Assembly: GCA_964398815.1 (NCBI GenBank)
Contig: CAYNNZ010000001.1
Location: 53,071 to 117,070 of the forward strand
From: an uncultured Candidatus Saccharibacteria bacterium
GTDB taxonomy: Bacteria; Patescibacteriota; Minisyncoccia; Phycocordibacterales; Phycocordibacteraceae
DNA length: 64,000 nt
Direction of reading: 5' to 3'
The position numbers and the translations under genes are program-made. The notes below the pieces were generated by a model. That model searched no databases and was not told where the DNA came from. It worked only from the letters and a program-made list of their open reading frames with translations. Below, piece after piece: positions 4,829-50,894 of the stretch. Within the stretch, counting starts at the first letter, position 1, and each line of letters begins with the position of its first letter.

Positions 4829-5629
4829 CTAGCAGCGGCCGCAGCGATTGCCTCGGCCGAAGTAGAGAATCGTGCCGAGGATGGCCGCGACCCCGAAGCC
4901 AGTGGCGATACGCTCGCCATTGCTCGGGATTCGCTCCTCGTTGGTGCACTGGTAGCCTTCCCGGCCCTGGGTGCGTTCGCACCCGACCCGCCGAGTCATC
5001 GTGAGGCCGCTGTCGCGGCCGCGCTGCTGCTCGGGGGTGTTCGGACTTGCCTGCCACTGCGCCAGCTGCATTTGCTGGTCGAACGTCGGCCCTTGCGGGG
5101 CCGGCGGTTGCGGGGGCGGAGCCGGTTGCACGTAGGCAGCCGGCTGCACCTCGGGAGCGTAGACGGTTTGCTGAATCCCCACTTGCGCGGGGTTGCTGCC
5201 GACATACGCGCCGTCATAGGTGTACCAGTAGAACGGGACGTCCGACCGCCAGCGCGTGTTGTTCTGCGTCATGACGCCACAGCGGATTTGCTGCGAGCGG
5301 CCTTGGCAGGCCCAGTGGTCGCCGCGTGCGAGGACGAGTCCTCGCGGAAGCGGCGGATTCACCCATGCCTGAGCCGGCGGTGCCGGGGGCGGCGGAGGCG
5401 CCGAGGCAACAGCCACACGAGCCGGGGTCGGGGTGACCACGGGAGCGGGAGGCGACGGAGTCGTCGGAGCAGGGGTGGAGGCGACCGGGGTGGGCGCGAC
5501 CGTGTCCTGGTTGCCGGCGATGCGTTCGCTGAGCGACATGATGCCGTTCGTTTCGGCGAAGGCCGGCGCGGACGGGAGGAGGATGCTCAGAATGGAAAGA
5601 GCAACCAATCCTTTACGAAATTTAGACAT
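4829..5629 (-). CDS. secreted Pro/Ala-rich protein with C-terminal TM helix and Arg/Cys tail, in a GC-rich islet
   Basis: Signal peptide MSKFRKGLVALSILSILLPSAPAFA and proline-rich repeats. The C-terminus is GFGVAAILGTILYFGRGNRCGRC. Third codon positions are almost all G/C, unlike neighbouring genes. The opposite-strand ORF 4811..5632 is judged an artefact of high GC. Confidence 0.5.
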   Translation of the reverse strand: MSKFRKGLVALSILSILLPSAPAFAETNGIMSLSERIAGNQDTVAPTPVASTPAPTTPSPPAPVVTPTPARVAVASAPPPPPAPPAQAWVNPPLPRGLVLARGDHWACQGRSQQIRCGVMTQNNTRWRSDVPFYWYTYDGAYVGSNPAQVGIQQTVYAPEVQPAAYVQPAPPPQPPAPQGPTFDQQMQLAQWQASPNTPEQQRGRDSGLTMTRRVGCERTQGREGYQCTNEERIPSNGERIATGFGVAAILGTILYFGRGNRCGRC

Positions 5630-42461: not shown

Positions 42462-43256
42462 ATGCGCATCATTTCTTGGAACGTGAATGGCATCCGGGCG
42501 GTCCACAAGAAGGACCTCTTCATGCCTTTTATAAAGAAGTACAAGCCGGACATTCTCCTCTTGCAGGAAACAAAGGCTGAGCAGCATCAATCCCCGCTCG
42601 ACCTGCCTGACTACGAGGAGTTTTGGAGTTCTTCCAAGGCTCGCAAGGGATACAGCGGTACAGCCATTTTTACGAAGATGACGCCGAATGACGTGCTCTT
42701 CGGTATGCCCGAAGACATCGTAAAAAAGCACGGACTTGGAGACGATAGCTACGGCGACCCAAATGAGGAAGGCCGGATTATCGCGGCCGATATGCACGAC
42801 TTCTACGTGGTGTCGGTATATACCCCAAACGCTAAGGATGACCTATCTCGCCTCGCGCTGCGCCACAAGCACTGGGACCCCGCATTCCTTGAGTACATGA
42901 AGCGGCTACAAGAAGAAAAGCCAGTCATTTTTGGCGGCGATTTGAATGTTGCCCATAGGCCAGAGGACTTGGCGCGACCGAAGGAAAACGAAGGCATGAA
43001 GGGCTTCACGAATGAGGAGCGCGAGGGCATCGACAATATTATTTCAGCCGGCTTCGTCGATACGCTTCGCGAGTTTAAAAAGGAAGGAGGACTGTATACC
43101 TGGTGGAGTCCATGGGGCGATGCACGCGCACGCAACGTGGGGTGGCGCATTGACTACGTATTTGCATCGAAATCATTTGCCAAGCATGTGAAGACCGCAG
43201 AAATACTCCCTGAAGTAATGGGCTCAGACCACTGCCCTGTCTCCATTACGCTCTAA
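42462..43256 (+). CDS. xth: exodeoxyribonuclease III (AP endonuclease, Xth family)
   Basis: MRIISWNVNGIRA..LLQETK...GGDLNVAH...SDHCPVSI conserved EEP/AP-endonuclease motifs. Confidence 0.9.
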   Translation: MRIISWNVNGIRAVHKKDLFMPFIKKYKPDILLLQETKAEQHQSPLDLPDYEEFWSSSKARKGYSGTAIFTKMTPNDVLFGMPEDIVKKHGLGDDSYGDPNEEGRIIAADMHDFYVVSVYTPNAKDDLSRLALRHKHWDPAFLEYMKRLQEEKPVIFGGDLNVAHRPEDLARPKENEGMKGFTNEEREGIDNIISAGFVDTLREFKKEGGLYTWWSPWGDARARNVGWRIDYVFASKSFAKHVKTAEILPEVMGSDHCPVSITL

Positions 43257-43667: not shown

Positions 43668-45137
43668 CTAGCAAACGTGATGTTTCCTCATTATTTCGTT
43701 GATTTCTCTTTCCTCTTCAACTTCCCTCTTTTTCTTGCCTGAATCCCCCAGTTTCTTCAGTTCAAGCTCGTCAAGCTTCAGTAGCTCAGCGGTGCGTTCA
43801 TCAAGATAGTTAACCGTATTCTTCTTCGGGTCCTCCAGTACTTCCTCTAGGAGCGCGTTCAACACGTGACCGATTTTAGGTCCTGGTTGCACATGAAACT
43901 CGTTCATTATGCGGGTACCGTCTGTTGCCAGCATGCCTACGGAAATAGGGTCACGCAGCGCCTCCTCCACCATCGCCTTGTATTTCCGGAATCGGAACGG
44001 CTGTTCCTTCGGCCTTCCTGTTCCGATACGGTCGCAGATACGTAGATTCAGTAAGTCCCATATGTTCTCCTCCCCCACGTTCCGAATCATGCGCCTGACA
44101 GCAGAAAGAGTTATCTGGTCAGGGTCAGAGAAAAACATGTGCCATCGGACCAATTTTGATACCTTATCGATTGTTTCACGTGAAAAACGTAAATTCTCAA
44201 GAGCCTTCCGGGTTACACGTGAACCAACCACCTCATGGCCATGGAAGGTCCAATCCTTCTTTTCGTCTGACCATCTGCGTGTTTCAGGCTTAGAAACATC
44301 GTGGAAGAGGGCAGCCAGTCGAATATCAAAATCCCAGTCCTTGTCGGCGGCATGCTGCAGTGCCCGCATAAGGTGACCAAATACGTCGTAGCTATGGGCC
44401 TGATTTTGGTCTATCCCAACGCCTCGGGTCAGGTCAGGTGCTATATATTCAAGGATTCCCAGCTGCTGTGCCAATACTAGGGCCAACATAGGCTCTTTGG
44501 ACTGCAATATGCGCACCAACTCGTCCCGAACCCTTTCACGCGAAACATGTCCCAAATTAGGCCCTTTTTCCTTAATCGCTGCAGCGGTATCAGTGTCGAG
44601 GGCGAATCCCAGCTCGGCAACTAGGCGTATGGCGCGCATAAGGCGGAGCGCATCCTCTTCAAACCGGTCCGTCGCCACACCCACTGTTTTCAACACTTTC
44701 GCCTCAATGTCCTTTTGTCCTTTATAGGGGTCTACTATATGTCCTTTAGACTCATCGAGGGCAATAGCGTTAATGGTGAAGTCTCTACGTGCAAGGTCAT
44801 CCTCGAGACTCTCGCCGAACGTGACCTCATCAGGGCGGCGTTTGTCGGTATAGCCCGACTCGGTGCGATACGGGGTCACTTCAATTATTGAAAGGGTAGG
44901 GTCCTCGCTCCCGGTTTTTACGCCTACGGTGCCGAAGTCATTCTCATAGAATGATTCTGGGAAGATTCGCTGGATGTCTTCGGGCTTGGCGTTCGTGGTC
45001 ACATCCCAATCCTTTGGGGTGCGTCCTATGAACAGATCTCGTACGCAGCCGCCCACCAAGTAGGCCTCGAATCCATTCTTCCGAAGCTCCTCCGCGACTG
45101 TCCGTACTTCAAGCGGAATAGGGAAGTGCATTGTCAA
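43668..45137 (-). CDS. cca: CCA tRNA nucleotidyltransferase with C-terminal HD domain
   Basis: Pol-beta nucleotidyltransferase motif GGCVRDLFIGRTPKDWDVTT and HD motif FHDVSKP. 489 aa. Confidence 0.85.
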   Translation of the reverse strand: MTMHFPIPLEVRTVAEELRKNGFEAYLVGGCVRDLFIGRTPKDWDVTTNAKPEDIQRIFPESFYENDFGTVGVKTGSEDPTLSIIEVTPYRTESGYTDKRRPDEVTFGESLEDDLARRDFTINAIALDESKGHIVDPYKGQKDIEAKVLKTVGVATDRFEEDALRLMRAIRLVAELGFALDTDTAAAIKEKGPNLGHVSRERVRDELVRILQSKEPMLALVLAQQLGILEYIAPDLTRGVGIDQNQAHSYDVFGHLMRALQHAADKDWDFDIRLAALFHDVSKPETRRWSDEKKDWTFHGHEVVGSRVTRKALENLRFSRETIDKVSKLVRWHMFFSDPDQITLSAVRRMIRNVGEENIWDLLNLRICDRIGTGRPKEQPFRFRKYKAMVEEALRDPISVGMLATDGTRIMNEFHVQPGPKIGHVLNALLEEVLEDPKKNTVNYLDERTAELLKLDELELKKLGDSGKKKREVEEEREINEIMRKHHVC

Positions 45138-45263: not shown

Positions 45264-46433
45264 ATGACGAAGAAAGAATTATTGGGTCTTGCTTCAAAAT
45301 ATGGGACACCGCTCTACGTCTATGACGAGGCAGTAATACGGCGCCAGTGCCAGAAGTTGCGTATAGCGTTTCCAAACGCGGCCATTCATTACGCGGTCAA
45401 AGCTAACTCGAACCCCGCGCTGTTGCGCATCATCGAAAGTGAGAAGTTTCATGTGGAATGCGTCAGTCTCGGTGAGTTAGCGCTCGTTCAATCAGTCGGC
45501 TTCCCGAAAGAACGAATCTCGTTCACATGCTCTAACCTCACAGAAGGGGAGTTACTGGCAGCAAGCAAGACTGGCGCACGTATTCATTTGGATTCACTTG
45601 AGCAGGTGCGTATATGGGGCGAACGCCGACTCGGGAAAGAAATTTCCGTGCGTTTGAACCAGGGTATAGGCGCTGGGCATCATAGCCACGTCATTACGGG
45701 CGGACCCGATAGTAAATTCGGTATTAGTCTCGCGGATGTTCCGATGCTTCTGAAACTGACAAAGAAGTATGGACTCACGGTCACCGGACTCCAGCAGCAC
45801 ATAGGTTCTAACGTGCTCACCCCTGCGATGTTTCTTAAGGCTATGAAAACGCTCTTCGCGACTGCTCTCGCGTTTCCAGAACTATCCCACCTCGACTTTG
45901 GCGGTGGATTCGGCATCGCGTATAGGCCGGAGCAGTCAGCACTCGATCTACCAGCGGTGAGCAAAGGTTTTTCGAAACTGTGCGCTGATTTCGAGAAGAA
46001 GCGTGGAAAACAATTTGTGTATTCATTCGAACCTGGCCGTTACCTCGTTGCAGAGGCGGGTACGCTCCTCGTTACCGTTGTCGATAGGAAGGCTACGAGC
46101 AAGCATGCCTTTGTAGGCGTGAATTCGGGCTTTAATCAGCTGATACGGCCTGCTATGTACGGTTCATACCATCCGATACAAAACGTCAGTCGTAGCGGCA
46201 AAACAGAGCTGGTGACTGTCGCCGGTAATGTCTGCGAGTCAGGAGATGTGTTCGCTACGCATCGCGCGATAGCGACCCCTAAAATCGGCGATGTGTTGGC
46301 TATCGAGTGCGCGGGTGCGTACGGGTTCTCTATGGCCTCCTATTACAACCTTCATGCCCCTCCACGGGAGGTGCTGGTATCAGGCGGGAAGGCCCGCGAT
46401 ATCTCGTTTGACCCCAAGGAGTACGCCCGCTAG
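45264..46433 (+). CDS. lysA: diaminopimelate decarboxylase
   Basis: PLP-binding YAVKANSNPALL, GGGFGIAY and CESGD motifs of the LysA / Orn-DAP-Arg decarboxylase fold. Confidence 0.9.
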   Translation: MTKKELLGLASKYGTPLYVYDEAVIRRQCQKLRIAFPNAAIHYAVKANSNPALLRIIESEKFHVECVSLGELALVQSVGFPKERISFTCSNLTEGELLAASKTGARIHLDSLEQVRIWGERRLGKEISVRLNQGIGAGHHSHVITGGPDSKFGISLADVPMLLKLTKKYGLTVTGLQQHIGSNVLTPAMFLKAMKTLFATALAFPELSHLDFGGGFGIAYRPEQSALDLPAVSKGFSKLCADFEKKRGKQFVYSFEPGRYLVAEAGTLLVTVVDRKATSKHAFVGVNSGFNQLIRPAMYGSYHPIQNVSRSGKTELVTVAGNVCESGDVFATHRAIATPKIGDVLAIECAGAYGFSMASYYNLHAPPREVLVSGGKARDISFDPKEYAR

Positions 46434-46471
46434 CGAACCGCGCGGGCTTCATGATATGATGCCTGCCACAT

Positions 46472-46545
46472 GCGGCCATGGTTTAGTGGTAGAACGCGTC
46501 CTTGCCAAGGACGAGACAGGAGTCCGATTCTCCTTGGCCGCACCA
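46472..46545 (+). tRNA. tRNA-Gly (anticodon GCC) with encoded CCA
   Basis: Acceptor GCGGCCA/TGGCCGC. Anticodon stem CGTCC/GGACG with loop TTGCCAA. T-arm AGGAG-TCCGATT-CTCCT. 3' end ACCA. Confidence 0.85.
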
Positions 46546-46583
46546 GCGAGTCAAAAGCCCCCGAAAGGGGGCTTTTGACGTTA
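46528..46583 (+). repeat. 56-nt direct repeat, copy A (tRNA-Gly 3' 18 nt plus downstream 13-bp-stem hairpin)
   Basis: TTCTCCTTGGCCGCACCAGCGAGTCAAAAGCCCCCGAAAGGGGGCTTTTGACGTTA. Identical to copy B at 46729..46784. Contains the perfect hairpin GTCAAAAGCCCCC-GAAA-GGGGGCTTTTGAC. Confidence 0.85.
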
Positions 46584-46695
46584 CCGCTGAGTGCGGCCAA
46601 AACAGGACGCGGGACGTCCTGTGTGGAGAATCGGAGGCCGGAAGCGCGACGGCGCTGAGGCGGGGTCGACCAAAATTCCAGCAGGAATTTATGGG

Positions 46696-46735
46696 TGACC
46701 GATGCGTGCCTGCGTCTTCGCAGGACACTTCTCCT
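46696..46735 (+). repeat. 40-nt dispersed element, copy 1 (downstream of tRNA-Gly)
   Basis: TGACCGATGCGTGCCTGCGTCTTCGCAGGACACTTCTCCT. Identical to 49647..49686. Contains the hairpin CCTGCG-TCTTC-GCAGG. Confidence 0.85.
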
Positions 46736-46784
46736 TGGCCGCACCAGCGAGTCAAAAGCCCCCGAAAGGGGGCTTTTGACGTTA
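46729..46784 (+). repeat. 56-nt direct repeat, copy B (partial tRNA-Gly 3' end plus hairpin)
   Basis: Exact copy of 46528..46583, 201 bp downstream. Its left end fuses to the 40-nt element. Confidence 0.85.
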
Positions 46785-46897
46785 AGACAAACAGGGGATA
46801 AACCTGTGCATACAGGGGATAAAGGACAAAAGACAGAAGTGAAAAGTCCTTCATAATTCTTTCAATCGTAAGCAAACAGGCCGTATAGTTAAAAGGC

Positions 46898-47293
46898 GTG
46901 AATATTTCCACCTATACCCGCAAGGACATCGGGGCCCTCGGTGAAAAGGTCGCTGCCGAATATCTACGCCGGCAGGGAATGCGTCTTATCGACCGAAACG
47001 TCGCGCGTAAGACGGGGGAAATCGATATCATCGCTCGCAAAGGAGAGACGCTCCATTTCGTGGAGGTGAAGACAATCCTGTGCGTTCAGTTCCCTGATAA
47101 TGACAGTCGTGAGGACAGATATGACCCAACAGCCAACCTGCACGAGGCTAAAATCCGTCGCGTCGCTCGAACGAGCGAATGGTATGTGGCAAATATCGAC
47201 TGGGAAGGGGAGTGGCAGATAGATGCTGTCCTCGTATGGCTACGGGGGCGCGATGGGCAGGCAAAAGTGAGGTACCTGCCACAAATCGTCTAA
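46898..47293 (+). CDS. yraN: YraN-family (UPF0102) endonuclease-like protein
   Basis: ALGEKVAAEYLRRQGMRLIDRNVARKTGEIDIIARKGETLHFVEVKT matches the YraN/UPF0102 pattern. Confidence 0.6.
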   Translation: MNISTYTRKDIGALGEKVAAEYLRRQGMRLIDRNVARKTGEIDIIARKGETLHFVEVKTILCVQFPDNDSREDRYDPTANLHEAKIRRVARTSEWYVANIDWEGEWQIDAVLVWLRGRDGQAKVRYLPQIV

Positions 47294-47318
47294 AGCTGGT
47301 AGGATGCCAAAACAACCG

Positions 47319-47389
47319 CGGGCTGTCGTATACCGGTAGTACGCTACTTTTGGGAAGTAGATGACGGAGTTCGATTCTCCGCAGCCCGA
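47319..47389 (+). tRNA. putative tRNA-Pro (anticodon UGG), 71 nt, slightly atypical
   Basis: Perfect 7-bp acceptor CGGGCTG/CAGCCCG. Anticodon stem CTACT/AGTAG with loop TTTGGGA. T-arm CGGAG-TTCGATT-CTCCG. Discriminator A, no CCA. The D-arm and variable region are a little short. Confidence 0.5.
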
Positions 47390-47392
47390 CAC

Positions 47393-48181
47393 GTGAATTC
47401 CATGAAAATTTATTCCTGGAACGTATATTGCTACAACCGCGAAGTGCCGAGGGTGGCTGACTACATACGCCACCTCGATTTCGACGTCCTGTGCCTCCAG
47501 GAAGTCACTCCTGAGCTGCTCGAGAAATTGCGAGCGATGCCGTTCCATCTTTCCTATCACATTGATGTCATCCGCCTCTTCTGGCGAGGTCGCACTGAAC
47601 ACAACTACGTGGCGATTCTTTCCAAGGAGGCGCCAGTGAATACGGGCAACCTCCAATTTTTCAACTTTCCGTTTCCGCTTCACACACGCGCATTCATCGC
47701 GTTCATGTCGCTCTTCCGTTGGTCCTTCGTTACCGAACGCGGCGCGCTCTATATCGATGTGCCGTTCAAAGGCGAAACGTTGCGAGTATTCTCTGTGCAC
47801 CTCACGCTTTGGGGTGCGACGAACCGCGCGAAAGAGTTCGAAGCGGTGACTGGACACATAGAGCCGGGGAAGCCGACCGCGGTATGTGGAGATTTCAATG
47901 TCATCGAATACGGACCGATGAAAGTTTTGAATTGGCTCCTCGGTGCACCGCTACGCGAAGGAATGCCCTGGTATCCGGAACGCGATTTATTCGAAGAACG
48001 TTTCTCCAAAGCAGGTCTCGCTAATCCACTCCGCGGTAAAGTGACACATGCGTTCTCACGTTCGCAGCTTGATCACATTCTTCTTTCAAAAGACTTAGTC
48101 GCAACAACTGCGGTGGTGCATAAGGAAACGCACGGTTCAGATCACCAGCCTGTGTCAGTGGAAATCGCTAGAGTCCAATAG
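47393..48181 (+). CDS. endonuclease/exonuclease/phosphatase (EEP) family protein
   Basis: YSWNV...LCLQEV...GDFN...GSDHQPVSVEI are the conserved EEP catalytic motifs. It starts 3 nt after the tRNA-Pro 3' end. Confidence 0.7.
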   Translation: MNSMKIYSWNVYCYNREVPRVADYIRHLDFDVLCLQEVTPELLEKLRAMPFHLSYHIDVIRLFWRGRTEHNYVAILSKEAPVNTGNLQFFNFPFPLHTRAFIAFMSLFRWSFVTERGALYIDVPFKGETLRVFSVHLTLWGATNRAKEFEAVTGHIEPGKPTAVCGDFNVIEYGPMKVLNWLLGAPLREGMPWYPERDLFEERFSKAGLANPLRGKVTHAFSRSQLDHILLSKDLVATTAVVHKETHGSDHQPVSVEIARVQ

Positions 48182-49391
48182 CGTCTGCGATAAATTGCCC
48201 AAGTCGCTCGGCAGTTGCGGAGTAGCTCTCCGCGAGGGCTACAGGCGAAGAATTCCCGAGGTAGCTTCCGAGCGATTCGCCTGTCGCGCTTGTGAACATT
48301 GAGCGGATATATGCGGGGGTGATGCCAAGCACTGAGCGCACGGTGTTCTCACTTGAGGCGTAGCTGCCGACTATTACGCCGACTACTTCGCCATCCATAT
48401 TCGCAATAGCTCCGCCGGACGCACCCGACTGGCCGACGCTTGTCCCGCTTATAGAAATGGTGCTGCCGGACGTGCCATTCAATGAACCAATTTTGGTAAT
48501 GGTGCCAGTCACGACCGTCTGCGGGAGCGCGGTGCGTACCTGCGTCTGCGATAGGGACTCGGCCGGGTAACCACCGAGCGCAACATCCTCTTGCGTGCTA
48601 GGAGAGTCGACCGTGAGCGGCATAGAAGAGAAGGAGGACGGGAGACCGCTTCCGGATACCGTTCCGGTAATCGCTAGAAGTGCGAACTCATTCTTGCCGG
48701 TGCCGGTCGGGTGCGAACTAATAAGTGTCGTTGAATTATCTTTTACCCACTGTTCTGGAATGTAGACCACTTTGAATTTGTATTTCGTCTGCGCCGGGTT
48801 TCCGGTGCGTATGACACAGGACATGACGTCAGAACCGAGGGTCTGTTCGAGCAGCTCGCCCTGAGCGACATGGGCGACGGTAAGTATGATGCCGCGCGAA
48901 TCAATGACCACGCCAGAACCCGAGAGACCTGTTACCTGCGAAGTGTGCGGCGTGCAGAGAATGTTGACGACGGAGCCCTTAAGGCGCGAAAGCACTCCAG
49001 AACTTGCAGGAGCGGCAGGCTCTTCCGGAGTAGTCGTGGTTGTAGCTGCTGGCTGCGGAAGCGGAGTGGGCGCGGGAACGACCGGTTTTGGAAGAACCGG
49101 CACTGGTTTCGTAGGCGTTGTCGGACTCGTCTTAGGTGTTGGCTTCTTTACGGGAGTCGCCTTCGTTGTTGTGGTCGGTTTGTCGAGCAGTTTATTAATA
49201 GTCGAAGTCGAGAACTCAATCGGCTCAGGAGAGAACGCAAATGCAGCGTCTGGTGCTACGGGGGTCAGCTGCGGGCGAATGGGCTCTATGGGCGAAATAT
49301 GGACGACTGCGCCCGTGTTGAAGTAGGAGACGAAGAGTGCAAAGGCGAGCGCGCCGAGAGCGGCGAGAAGATGCTCGATATGCTGTCGCAT
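48168..49391 (-). CDS. membrane-anchored trypsin-like serine protease (S1 family) with a Pro/Thr-rich linker
   Basis: N-terminal TM helix and a PT-rich linker. Catalytic triad context TVAHVA (His), D, and GASGGAI (Ser). Confidence 0.7.
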   Translation of the reverse strand: MRQHIEHLLAALGALAFALFVSYFNTGAVVHISPIEPIRPQLTPVAPDAAFAFSPEPIEFSTSTINKLLDKPTTTTKATPVKKPTPKTSPTTPTKPVPVLPKPVVPAPTPLPQPAATTTTTPEEPAAPASSGVLSRLKGSVVNILCTPHTSQVTGLSGSGVVIDSRGIILTVAHVAQGELLEQTLGSDVMSCVIRTGNPAQTKYKFKVVYIPEQWVKDNSTTLISSHPTGTGKNEFALLAITGTVSGSGLPSSFSSMPLTVDSPSTQEDVALGGYPAESLSQTQVRTALPQTVVTGTITKIGSLNGTSGSTISISGTSVGQSGASGGAIANMDGEVVGVIVGSYASSENTVRSVLGITPAYIRSMFTSATGESLGSYLGNSSPVALAESYSATAERLGQFIADAIGL

Positions 49392-49443
49392 GGCCCTTAT
49401 GCTACTGCACAGGCTGGTCTTATGCTATCCTCGTCAGGTTAAG

Positions 49444-49514
49444 GCGGGATTAGTTTAATGGTAGAACATCAGTTTTCCAAACTGAGAGCAGGAGTCCGAT
49501 TCTCCTATCCCGCA
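49444..49514 (+). tRNA. tRNA-Trp (anticodon CCA)
   Basis: Acceptor GCGGGAT/ATCCCGC, U8 A9. D-arm GTTTAATGGTAGAAC. Anticodon loop TTTCCAA. T-arm AGGAG-TCCGATT-CTCCT. Discriminator A, no encoded CCA. Confidence 0.8.
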
Positions 49515-49646
49515 CATGTAACACGCGAAGCGTGTGTAATGGCTGGGATAGGAGAATCGGAGCTGAGCGCGGGCACCTGCCGAGCACGGCAGGTCGCGCG
49601 AAGGGTGGTCAGGCGGAAGGAGGAGCGACGGCGACGAGTGAGCGCT

Positions 49647-49686
49647 TGACCGATGCGTGCCTGCGTCTTCGCAGGACACTTCTCCT
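49647..49686 (+). repeat. 40-nt dispersed element, copy 2 (downstream of tRNA-Trp)
   Basis: Exact copy of 46696..46735. It lies in the 5' leader of rarA. Confidence 0.85.
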
Positions 49687-49727
49687 CCCTCAATTGCTTT
49701 TCATCTTTCCGGGCGTACCCTTTCCCT

Positions 49728-50894
49728 ATGGAACCCCTTGCTAATCGTATACGCCCGACCTCGCTCGACGATGTCGTGGGGCAGGAGCATCTCGTGGGGA
49801 AGGGGAAACCACTTCGTGTGGCGATAGAGAAGAAGCATCTCTTCTCGTTCATTTTATGGGGGCCACCCGGAACCGGAAAAACGACCATCGCACGCATCTA
49901 TGCCCGTGCGCTCGATGCTGAACTGTTTGAACTTTCGGCAGTTTCAGCCGGCAAAGAAGACATCCGGAGAATAATCGGCGAAGGGAAGAATCAGGTACTC
50001 GAATTCAAGCCGAAGGTGCTCTTCCTCGACGAGATACATCGTTTTAATAAAGCCCAGCAGGATTTCCTCCTGCCGTACGTCGAGAGTGGTCAGCTCACGC
50101 TCATCGGTGCGACTACCGAGAACCCTTCGTTCGAAGTCATTCCCGCTCTTCTATCGCGCTCACGCGTATTCGTGCTCGAGTCGCTCTCGGAAGAAGCATT
50201 AGGTACTATTATCGAGCGTGCGGGCGCGAAACTCAGCGAAGATGCCTTTGAGTGGCTCATGGGCTATGCCAATGGAGACGCGCGTAAGGCGCTCGGGATG
50301 CTCGAAGGCGCCATCGCGCTCTATGGAAAGAAGATTACGGTCGCGAATCTGAATAAAGCGCTTGAGAGCCCGCATCTGCGCTACGACAAGAAGGGTGACG
50401 AGCACTACGACACCATTAGCGCGTTCATAAAGAGCATGCGCGCGAGCCAGCCAGACGCCGCCATGTATTATCTCGCTCGCATGATTGAAGCGGGGGAGGA
50501 CCCACTCTTTATCGCGCGCCGTATGGTTATTTTCGCCTCAGAGGACATAGGACTCGCCCAGCCGACCGCGCTCGTGGTTGCAAACGCCGTATTTCGCGCA
50601 TGCGAGACGATTGGATACCCTGAGTGTTCGCTCAATCTCGCACATGGGGTCGCCTATCTCGCGAATGCTGCGAAGGATAGAAGCGCTAATGATGCACTCG
50701 CTGCTGCACAGGCAGACGTTAAGGCATTTGGGAACCTGAAAGTCCCTATGAATATACGAAATGCGCCAACCAAGCTCATGAAAAACCTCGGCTACGGTAA
50801 GGGATACAAAAAATACGACGACGAAAGCTATCTTCCGGAGAAAATACAGAAGCACTCCTATTTCCCTAAGCGCAAAGGGAAGGCGAAAGAATAA
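49728..50894 (+). CDS. rarA: replication-associated recombination protein RarA/MgsA (AAA+ ATPase)
   Basis: Walker [12 protein letters not shown], Walker [10 protein letters not shown], conserved RarA C-terminal region. The ATG at 49728 ([22 protein letters not shown]) is preferred. The upstream part of the ORF-track frame is the 40-nt repeat. Confidence 0.85.

Follow-up and report, generated by a model that had tools for sequence, protein, structure and literature searches.

A 64,000-nt stretch of a patescibacterial genome (contig CAYNNZ010000001.1, positions 53,071 to 117,070; hereafter the window, from whose first letter all coordinates are counted) carries the 40-nt sequence TGACCGATGCGTGCCTGCGTCTTCGCAGGACACTTCTCCT in two identical copies, each behind a tRNA gene. 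We found that each of these 40-mers makes up the 3' portion of one member of a family of structured non-coding modules of 130-190 nt, which sit directly behind tRNA genes and on the tRNA strand in Paceibacteria-type Patescibacteria. Typically, an antisense and a sense copy of the 3' end of the preceding tRNA enclose a core of conserved hairpins. The modules are a broader variant of the tRNA-trailer element represented by the RtT RNA of Escherichia coli, sharing its design and not its sequence, and are without an Rfam family. On balance, and with moderate confidence, we regard the module as a co-transcribed tRNA-trailer or spacer RNA with ends defined by tRNA enzymes, in which the three copies of the tRNA 3' end drive recombination.

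The 40-mer repeat is a real feature and not a product of chance. Its two copies (46696-46735 and 49647-49686, both on the + strand) are exact, as an earlier note on this DNA had reported; no further copy at up to 3 mismatches was found in the window, and none of 100 dinucleotide shuffles contained a match. An assembly artefact was ruled out, as two independent assemblies (JGI and ENA) contain the identical sequence, with 100% and 99.97% identity over 6 kb. The first copy follows tRNA-Gly(GCC) (46472-46545, + strand; ARAGORN, and 67.4 bits with the Rfam tRNA model), which has an encoded CCA. The second follows a + strand tRNA gene without encoded CCA at 49444-49514, which the earlier note had taken for tRNA-Trp; its anticodon loop is UU-UCC-AA according to both ARAGORN (anticodon tcc) and the Rfam alignment, and it is in fact tRNA-Gly(UCC). 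The two tRNAs are isoacceptors with the same T arm, CAGGAGTCCGATTCTCCT, and because of this identity GGAGAATCGGAG and TTCTCCT are common to both sites. The T loop of both genes (46517-46534 and 49489-49506) reads UCCGAUU, so that position 55, in nearly all tRNAs a U (pseudouridine), is a C. This variant was also seen in L085, L088, L090, L091 and L011 (L-numbers denote the loci used for comparison, mostly of relatives), and UUCGAUU in L009, L008 and L086; the antisense copy of a module tracks the T-loop variant of its tRNA.

Read from 5' to 3', a module opens with a hairpin, either trailer or terminator, behind which lies an antisense copy of the final ~20 nt of the tRNA, comprising T loop, 3' strand of the T stem and 3' strand of the acceptor; in most cases a further hairpin divides this copy where acceptor and T stem meet. 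Next come a core of two or three hairpins, with the conserved loops GACG, AGCA and GAGUGRCGACGA and a likewise conserved GGUC/GACC base, and a sense copy of the tRNA 3' end, stopping at the discriminator base or CCA. We refer to the last ~20 nt of the tRNA itself as X, to the antisense copy as anti-X and to the sense copy as X'. In the window modules start 0-45 nt past tRNA-Gly(GCC), tRNA-Gly(UCC) and tRNA-Lys. Loci of relatives were fetched through homologues of RarA, whose gene lies just downstream of the second module, and covariance models were built from them for the A-type core (R1) and the B-type core (R2).

In module A, behind tRNA-Gly(GCC), X is the template of both copies. The repeat search detected a 56-nt direct repeat on the + strand, at 46528-46583 and 46729-46784, 100% identical and including a terminator hairpin, and described the site as 1.28 copies of a 201-nt unit. 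Its first arm comprises the T-loop end, the T-stem 3' strand, the acceptor 3' strand, ACCA and the terminator hairpin (46550-46579). Downstream of it lies anti-X (46591-46636, + strand), read from the sequence and matching the antisense query of the survey described below at 11/12; it is made up of the anti-acceptor GTGCGGCCAA (46591-46600), a junction hairpin ACAGGACG-CGGGA-CGTCCTGT (46602-46622) and the anti-T-stem/T-loop GGAGAATCGGAG (46625-46636). The core (46637-46700, + strand) scored 92 bits with R1 (E 3.6e-19) and shows covariation. Its first hairpin, H1, is GCC-GGAA-GCGC-GACG-GCGC-UGA-GGC (46637-46661), and H2 is formed by GGGGUCG, an AGCA-loop stem and GUGACC (46662-46700). The 40-mer, delimited by exact-match search and fold, contains the 3' strand of H2 (TGACC), the linker GATGC, a third hairpin H3 and the first 7 nt of the tRNA-3'-end copy. 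H3 is GTGCCTGCG-TCTT-CGCAGGACAC (46706-46728), as RNA GUGCCUGCG-UCUU-CGCAGGACAC. In the second arm of the direct repeat X' is TTCTCCTTGGCCGCACCA (46729-46746), a perfect copy of the tRNA 3' end including CCA, followed by the second copy of the terminator hairpin.

Module B, behind tRNA-Gly(UCC) and likewise on the + strand, opens with a trailer hairpin (49515-49543) and an unsplit antisense copy, TGGGATAGGAGAATCGGA (49544-49561). By repeat search, the tRNA 3' end with the trailer hairpin and TGGGATAGGAGAATCGGA make up an inverted repeat with 32-nt arms, 81% complementary. This flank is identical at 62/62 positions in L085. The core (49562-49651) scored 90.7 bits with R2 and has an AGCA-loop hairpin as H1 (49567-49599) and GGUCAGGCG...CGCUUGACC with the apex GAGCGACGGCGACGAGUGA as H2 (49607-49651). 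The second 40-mer, again placed by exact-match search and fold, runs into a degenerate tRNA-3'-end copy, TTCTCCT--CCCTCA (TTCTCCTCCCTCA, 49680-49692). The inverted copies between tRNA and 40-mer, including the hairpin insert, and the merging of the 40-mer into a direct copy had been described by the earlier note, and both are found at the places it gave.

A third module, which the earlier note had missed, follows tRNA-Lys(UUU) (1053-1125) at 1126-1262 on the + strand. R2 matched it at 1176-1264 with 80.6 bits (E 2e-11), R1 with E 0.78. It consists of a trailer hairpin (1126-1169), a degenerate anti-acceptor TGCGAGCCGGAGTGATG (1170-1186), an AGCA-loop H1 (1181-1208) and an H2 of GGUCGCGG...CGGUGACC with GGUC...GACC and the loop GUGACGACGA (1216-1260); no sense copy of the tRNA 3' end was found behind it. 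Matches of R1 at 5402-5488 of the window lie within a coding region and are due to chance.

When the regions downstream of the two glycine tRNAs were folded, modules A and B gave the same architecture, a multibranch structure closed by a helix P1, with z = -5.8 and -3.0 against shuffles. P1 is the antisense copy paired with the sense copy, in module A anti-X with X' as its 3' strand, and it encloses H1 (GCGC/GCGC stem), H2 (GGUC...GACC base) and H3.

The arrangement is not confined to the window. From 165 loci (1.67 Mb) we took every tRNA with sufficient flanks, 109 in all, and searched 450 nt on each side, using as queries the tRNA's own last 16 nt (sense) and the reverse complement of its T loop and T-stem 3' strand (antisense). 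A sense copy at a threshold of at least 13/16 was found downstream in 12 cases, as compared to 0 in the upstream control and 1 in the permuted-tRNA control; for the antisense copy, at a threshold of at least 11/12, the corresponding numbers were 13, 0 and 2. Both copies with the antisense one before the sense one were present downstream of 13/109 tRNAs, and in neither control (0 upstream, 0 with permuted tRNAs). Modules were found behind at least 10 tRNA types in related genomes: Gly (two isoacceptors), Arg (two), Tyr, Leu, Thr, Ser, Gln, His and Glu. In addition, tRNA-Met is followed by a sense copy and a core, tRNA-Lys by a core and a degenerate antisense copy, and tRNA-Trp by an antisense copy only. 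Most sense copies lie at +124 to +190, and in most modules the copy has its start within the T loop; the match to the tRNA generally runs as far as the discriminator, C or CCA. Eight modules (window A, Arg and Ser in L050, Tyr and Leu in L012, L137, L071 and L120) carry a hairpin that divides the antisense copy at the junction of acceptor and T stem, and the junction hairpins of these eight differ in sequence. The P1 architecture was present in the minimum-energy fold of 9/11 modules from other loci.

Behind tRNA-Gly(UCC) of relatives we found a B-type core in L009, a core only in L010, an A-type core in L085 and one module in L090, which also has two cores in tandem between tRNA-Arg and tRNA-Gly. 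Further copies matching R1 or R2 stand behind the tRNA-Lys of the window, tRNA-Met (L047), tRNA-Arg, tRNA-Lys and tRNA-Ser (L050) and tRNA-Gly (L137). The majority of significant matches to R1 and R2 fall in the ~300 nt behind a tRNA of the same strand, a zone that accounts for ~1.4% of the searched sequence. Most sites hold a single unit; tandem units occur in L012 (Tyr), L050 (Arg) and L090 (Arg), besides the 1.28 units at site A. Some modules occupy the spacers of tRNA operons, in the order Met-module-Asp and Thr-module-Thr in L047 and Arg-cores-Gly in L090.

Some related sequences were noted in the same loci. Core-like hairpins (GCGC-GACG-GCGC; AGCA-loop) without a called tRNA beside them occur in L131 (2600-2700 and 4150-4280), L056 (11860-11960), L082 (7400-7620) and L012 (9950-10060); long inverted repeats, A/T-rich in the first two loci, enclose those of L131, L056 and L082, and in L082 two core copies face each other next to tRNA-like D-arm sequence. 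Behind tRNA-Gly(GCC) of L011 (2617-2860) stand in tandem two 'minihelix' hairpins that consist of acceptor-stem sequence and ACC alone. The same trailer and a terminator come after each of them, and they resemble modules without a core. In L152 (5598-5980), tRNA-Ile(GAU) is followed ~160 nt on by a second tRNA-Ile-like gene with an apparent ~110-nt insertion in its anticodon loop; the copy of the 3' part reaches from the anticodon stem to the 3' end (37 nt).

The structure of the core is conserved by compensatory change. In an alignment of 15 matches, which had itself been fitted to R1, 97% of the cells were paired and 17/20 pairs had changed on both sides; this was reached by 0/500 shuffles, and slid partners paired at 34-50%. 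In the four B-type cores, aligned with MAFFT, 15/23 pairs were compensatory and the loops AGCA and GAGUGRCGACGA were conserved. Paired columns contained 15 G-U as compared to 1 A-C, and the tRNA-sense strand was predicted to be more stable than its complement in 11/11 modules, with sums of -575 versus -486 kcal/mol. From the G-U bias and the folding asymmetry we concluded that the module strand is the tRNA strand. The strand asymmetry and the covariation speak for a folded tRNA-sense RNA and against an att site recognised by a protein. Moreover, the modules in tRNA operon spacers must be transcribed together with those tRNAs. A promoter and terminator scan gave nothing informative, with no convincing promoter at site A.

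Genes in the neighbourhood of modules A and B encode a CCA-adding enzyme (43668-45137), an ornithine/diaminopimelate decarboxylase, YraN/UPF0102, two EEP-family nucleases, a trypsin-like protease, RarA/MgsA and RNase Y. In a protein search with RarA all named matches (79-84% identity) came from Patescibacteria or Paceibacterota metagenome-assembled genomes; other homologues had 80-90% identity, and the closest relative, L085, 90%. The tRNA order Arg, Gly-GCC, Pro, Gly-UCC, followed by rarA, is retained in relatives with and without modules, and the GC content is flat (0.53-0.57), that of the block between the 40-mers being like that of its flanks. The retained order and the flat composition make the 3-kb block between the 40-mers ordinary syntenic chromosome, and a 3-kb island between the 40-mers, which the earlier note had described as bracketing this segment, was rejected on these grounds. 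Its proposal of paired att remnants found no support either, each 40-mer being part of its own self-contained module of ~150-190 nt. The more general idea of a small mobile or recombinogenic element at tRNA 3' ends held up in part: the elements are modular and linked to tRNA 3' ends, and behave as if recombinogenic and insertion-polymorphic. Within the block, yraN and the second EEP gene are each absent from some relatives. The two EEP-family (Exo_endo_phos) genes are paralogous and lie within 5 kb, one on each side of the tRNA cluster (42462-43256 and 47393-48181); the second is absent in L086 and L091.

Presence and absence of modules differ between close relatives. In L086 and L011 the tRNA-Gly(UCC)/rarA junction has no module, and the trailer which in L086 stands right behind the tRNA (AATTGnTTTTCAT) is found in the window after the degenerate copy of module B, as ATTGCTTTTCAT. 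Judged from this position, module B is an insertion or duplication relative to the empty state; the sequence does not tell which of the tRNA-end copies was the original one. The same junction is a hot spot of variable gene content, with 0.5-3.8 kb of differing small genes in close relatives (L085 2450-6000, L088 2800-4190, L090 5400-6000, L091 4420-6000), among them a TrmB-family regulator, an ABM-domain protein and hypotheticals, and none in the window or L086. In the loci compared, tRNA-end copies never occurred past neighbouring genes, so the variable genes between tRNA-Gly(UCC) and rarA are not bounded by such copies. In L088, directly behind tRNA-Gly(UCC) (2802-2850), GTGACCGAAGTGCCTG is similar to the start of the 40-mer, GTGACCGATGCGTGCCTG, and may be the remnant of a deleted module.

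At the tRNA-Gly(UCC)/rarA junction L085 has a mosaic, in which the left flank of window module B is joined to an A-type core as at tRNA-Gly(GCC) and a 40-mer with 1 mismatch. L050 carries a ~90% identical core behind tRNA-Ser and tRNA-Arg in one genome, with the anti-acceptor, junction hairpin, anti-T segment and sense copy each specific to the local tRNA. We concluded from these two cases that tRNA loci exchange cores, with the termini remaining local. That the 40-mer is exactly identical at the two glycine tRNAs can best be understood as a tract of recombination or conversion between two modules with common T-arm-derived flanks.

The co-transcribed trailer or spacer RNA that we favour would work as follows. 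In the tRNA-sense transcript the antisense and sense copies would pair into the closing helix P1, with acceptor/T-stem sequence, and thereby hold the core. The module would be transcribed with its tRNA, as an operon spacer or a read-through trailer, and might then be cut out as a small RNA, its tRNA-like end being handled by the enzymes that process tRNA ends. At the DNA level X, anti-X and X', three copies of the same 20 nt, could make the locus recombinogenic, and modules would be duplicated, lost and exchanged as these copies undergo unequal recombination and gene conversion. We propose that recombination through these copies gave rise to the 201-nt tandem unit, the empty sites, the mosaic cores and the identical 40-mer.

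Several points weigh against this explanation. Transcription, processing by tRNA enzymes, recombination as the mechanism of spreading and any cellular function are what we infer from the observations above, and the R1 covariation was counted on an alignment fitted to its own model. The tRNA and the module of site A are separated by a strong terminator hairpin. P1 of module A also pairs the discriminator and C74, leaving only CA free, and T-loop residues are paired or missing in the modules, which are thus no faithful tRNA mimics. RNase P and RNase Z need no local-tRNA sequence in the helix, so that the exact match favours copying at the DNA level or pairing in cis. The antisense T-loop segment follows the T loop of the upstream tRNA (U55C), and the 3' copies of the glycine modules are without that part. 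Furthermore, copies were found which do not lie beside any called tRNA (L082, L056, L131, L012), and the cores at tRNA-Lys, in L010 and at tRNA-Arg of L090 are without a 3' copy. The chief difficulty is to account for termini that match each tRNA.

One rival explanation derives the modules from integrative elements that have the T-loop region of tRNA genes as their target; the modules would be scars of these or miniature, non-autonomous forms similar to cis-mobilizable elements (CIME), with the core and 40-mer as the P arm of attP and an integrase acting in trans; the element would supply a new tRNA 3' end, and the displaced original would remain as attR and decay. A regenerated tRNA with its displaced 3' fragment as direct repeats, the defining signature of tRNA islands (PMC4383910), is indeed present at the modules, the copy begins in the T loop in most of them, and the empty-site trailer standing after the degenerate copy, the presence of modules in some close relatives and not in others and the hot spot at the tRNA-Gly(UCC)/rarA junction would all fit. 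Yet the bounded segment is merely 130-200 bp long, without an open reading frame, and no integrase adjoins any module; the sole Phage_integrase-domain gene seen (L001 1799-2716, also in L086) lies ~4 kb upstream of tRNA-Gly(GCC). Integrase and cargo between the repeats, or an autonomous relative carrying them, were found neither in the loci examined nor in the phage, plasmid and viral searches. Modules also lie inside tRNA operon spacers, a double-stranded att site needs neither compensatory changes nor a G-U strand bias, and a 20-nt inverted target copy tailored to the tRNA is no feature of attP. Finally, one core family stands at several tRNAs with differing termini, where an element bringing its own 3' end would break the tRNA. 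We therefore consider an integrative origin unlikely. There is next to no probability of a chance repeat, or of a terminator or leader motif of the ordinary shared kind, although module B lies just upstream of rarA and a terminator follows module A: no chance match of the 40-mer is expected, the 40-mer has no U-tract and was not called by the terminator scan, the same architecture stands behind many tRNAs in many genomes, and the downstream genes vary (yraN, rarA, other tRNAs). This reading is refuted by the tRNA survey and the covariation results.

Two further explanations were weighed. In a cis-acting folding switch of the tRNA precursor, anti-X would pair either with X, destroying the cloverleaf, or with the decoy X', and the core would sense a protein or ligand, tuning the yield of mature tRNA from read-through or operon transcripts. 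No other model requires local-tRNA sequence in all three segments, which is what is observed; the antisense T loop covaries with the U55C variant of the tRNA, the core loops are conserved, and in predicted minimum-energy folds of tRNA plus module the cloverleaf gives way to an X:anti-X hairpin, with the 5' strand of the tRNA paired to X'. This evidence is purely thermodynamic, however, and tRNAs fold and are processed co-transcriptionally before anti-X exists. Moreover, X' or anti-X has decayed in many modules (window B, L090), X' is wholly absent from some cores, and gene conversion can keep such close inverted and direct repeats identical without selection, which leaves the switch distinctly unlikely in our view. 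Very unlikely is an RNA-mediated or target-templated mobile element, whose module RNA, with a tRNA-like 'tag' and an antisense copy resembling a primer-binding site, would be turned into DNA that is inserted at a tRNA 3' end, its termini templated by the target tRNA. Such an element would account for termini that are always of the local-tRNA type with cores common to different tRNAs, for 3' copies that usually stop at the mature tRNA end, for the CCA in the copies of L085 and L053, which is not encoded by their tRNA genes, and for an antisense copy spanning the same ~18-20 nt as a retroviral primer-binding site. But none of the loci showed a reverse transcriptase, the argument from CCA applies to only 2 of ~12 modules and elsewhere the copy follows the trailer of the gene itself (L137), the complement of CCA is generally not in the antisense copy, and no known bacterial retroelement works in this way.

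Several known types of element were considered and rejected. A miniature inverted-repeat transposable element or small insertion sequence derivative does not agree with termini that vary by site and equal the local tRNA, nor with 3 copies in 64 kb, all behind tRNAs, and a 40-mer present only twice. For tmRNA, including two-piece tmRNA, ARAGORN was negative and the topology is wrong. A T-box-like resemblance of GGGUGACCG is not conserved in other copies, and known self-cleaving ribozymes gave no Rfam matches. Integron attC sites and IS200/IS605 ends with TnpB-type guide RNA were dismissed, as no matching core sites or genes were present and these systems make no target duplication of 20-56 nt. 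A tandem tRNA pseudogene with an insertion in the T loop was excluded on account of the left arm, which shows the T loop as reverse complement (AAUCGGA, GAUUGAA, AUUUGAA) and not as a direct copy. With Rfam 15, at both gathering and permissive thresholds, only tRNAs were found. Scans of viral contigs with the H3/40-mer core and the H2 pattern gave 0 matches, BLAST against phages and plasmids gave none, and a pattern scan of metagenomes gave 0 matches in a collection that probably does not hold the source samples, since the module-bearing JGI contigs L001 and L090 were not returned. A prior description of such modules in the candidate phyla radiation/Patescibacteria was not found in the searchable literature.

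Among known systems, tRNA-integrated islands and CIME resemble the modules in having an intact tRNA followed by a displaced 3'-end copy as a direct repeat from the T loop, and in varying presence (PMC4383910). They differ in that the modules are 130-200 bp long without gene or integrase, contain a tRNA-specific inverted copy, have a conserved structure of the RNA type and occur also between tRNAs of one operon. With tRNA-like structures (the tRNA-like domain of tmRNA, YrlA/Y RNA and viral tRNA-like structures) the modules share a helix of acceptor/T-stem sequence with a free 3' tail and a hairpin emerging where the D and anticodon arms would be. Unlike these, they have no T loop, which is replaced by the core or has its residues paired, and in module A the discriminator is paired; neither ARAGORN nor Rfam detected tmRNA or a tRNA-like family at the modules. 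Functional RNAs carved from tRNA precursors by tRNA-processing nucleases include 3'ETS-leuZ of E. coli. Such spacer and trailer small RNAs, in contrast to the modules, are short, largely unstructured, Hfq-binding sponges without sense or antisense tRNA-end copies.

The closest known system is the RtT RNA (rttR; Rfam RF00391), which corresponds to repeat units of 178 bp in the tyrT/tyrV operon of E. coli and for more than 30 years has been an isolated curiosity of tyrT without accepted function or origin. Its function reportedly remained unclear in the studies of Bosl and Kersten 1991 and Rossi et al. 1981, and in the literature is still described as uncertain. Like the window modules, RtT lies directly behind a tRNA gene and on the same strand. 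In the tyrT/tyrV locus, which we fetched, each unit ends with a copy of the tRNA-Tyr 3' end from T loop to CCA, AAUCCUUCCCCCACCACCA, and the units are repeated in tandem behind tyrT and tyrV. An upstream antisense copy, GGGGAAGGAU, pairs with the tRNA-end copy to give the closing helix of a multi-hairpin RNA; in the Rfam consensus this helix is GgGaaGG x CCuuCcC, with the tRNA-Tyr 3'-end copy ...AUCCUUCCCCCACCACCA as its 3' strand. RtT is known from one tRNA (Tyr) in enterobacteria, whereas the modules described here are found behind at least 10 tRNA types in another phylum. The modules also add a trailer hairpin with a stem extending into the tRNA, a junction hairpin and conserved core loops, their antisense copy reaches through the T loop and the whole acceptor strand, and they contain no Tpr-like open reading frame. 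The RF00391 model (gathering score 45 bits) had no match at E<=10 in 46300-49900 of the window and none at E<=1 in L090, L050, L047 and L085; in the reverse test the R1 and R2 core models scored only 10-16 bits on RtT units, and true homology was not shown. In one RtT unit (L172, NC_000913 1287066-1287236) GAAGCGCGCAGCGCUGAG resembles H1 of module A, GAAGCGCGACGGCGCUGAG (window 46642-46660). Given its other place in the architecture and the low scores of the core models, this likeness is probably due to chance.

The same design as that of RtT thus occurs in a distant, genome-reduced phylum, behind a dozen tRNAs and with strong structural covariation, which suggests either a general way to make or regulate RNAs from tRNA transcripts or a general tRNA-linked selfish element. 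It is conceivable, if rather unlikely, that the modules and E. coli RtT together form a general, so far unrecognised class of elements with ends templated by the tRNA, acting as a cis switch of tRNA maturation or as a homing non-coding element that re-tailors its termini, possibly via an RNA intermediate. For annotation it follows that short 'att-like' repeats of tRNA 3' ends in Patescibacteria are usually no island boundaries. The modules offer a large and diverse family for comparative and biochemical work, and a testable puzzle in the match of their termini to each tRNA.

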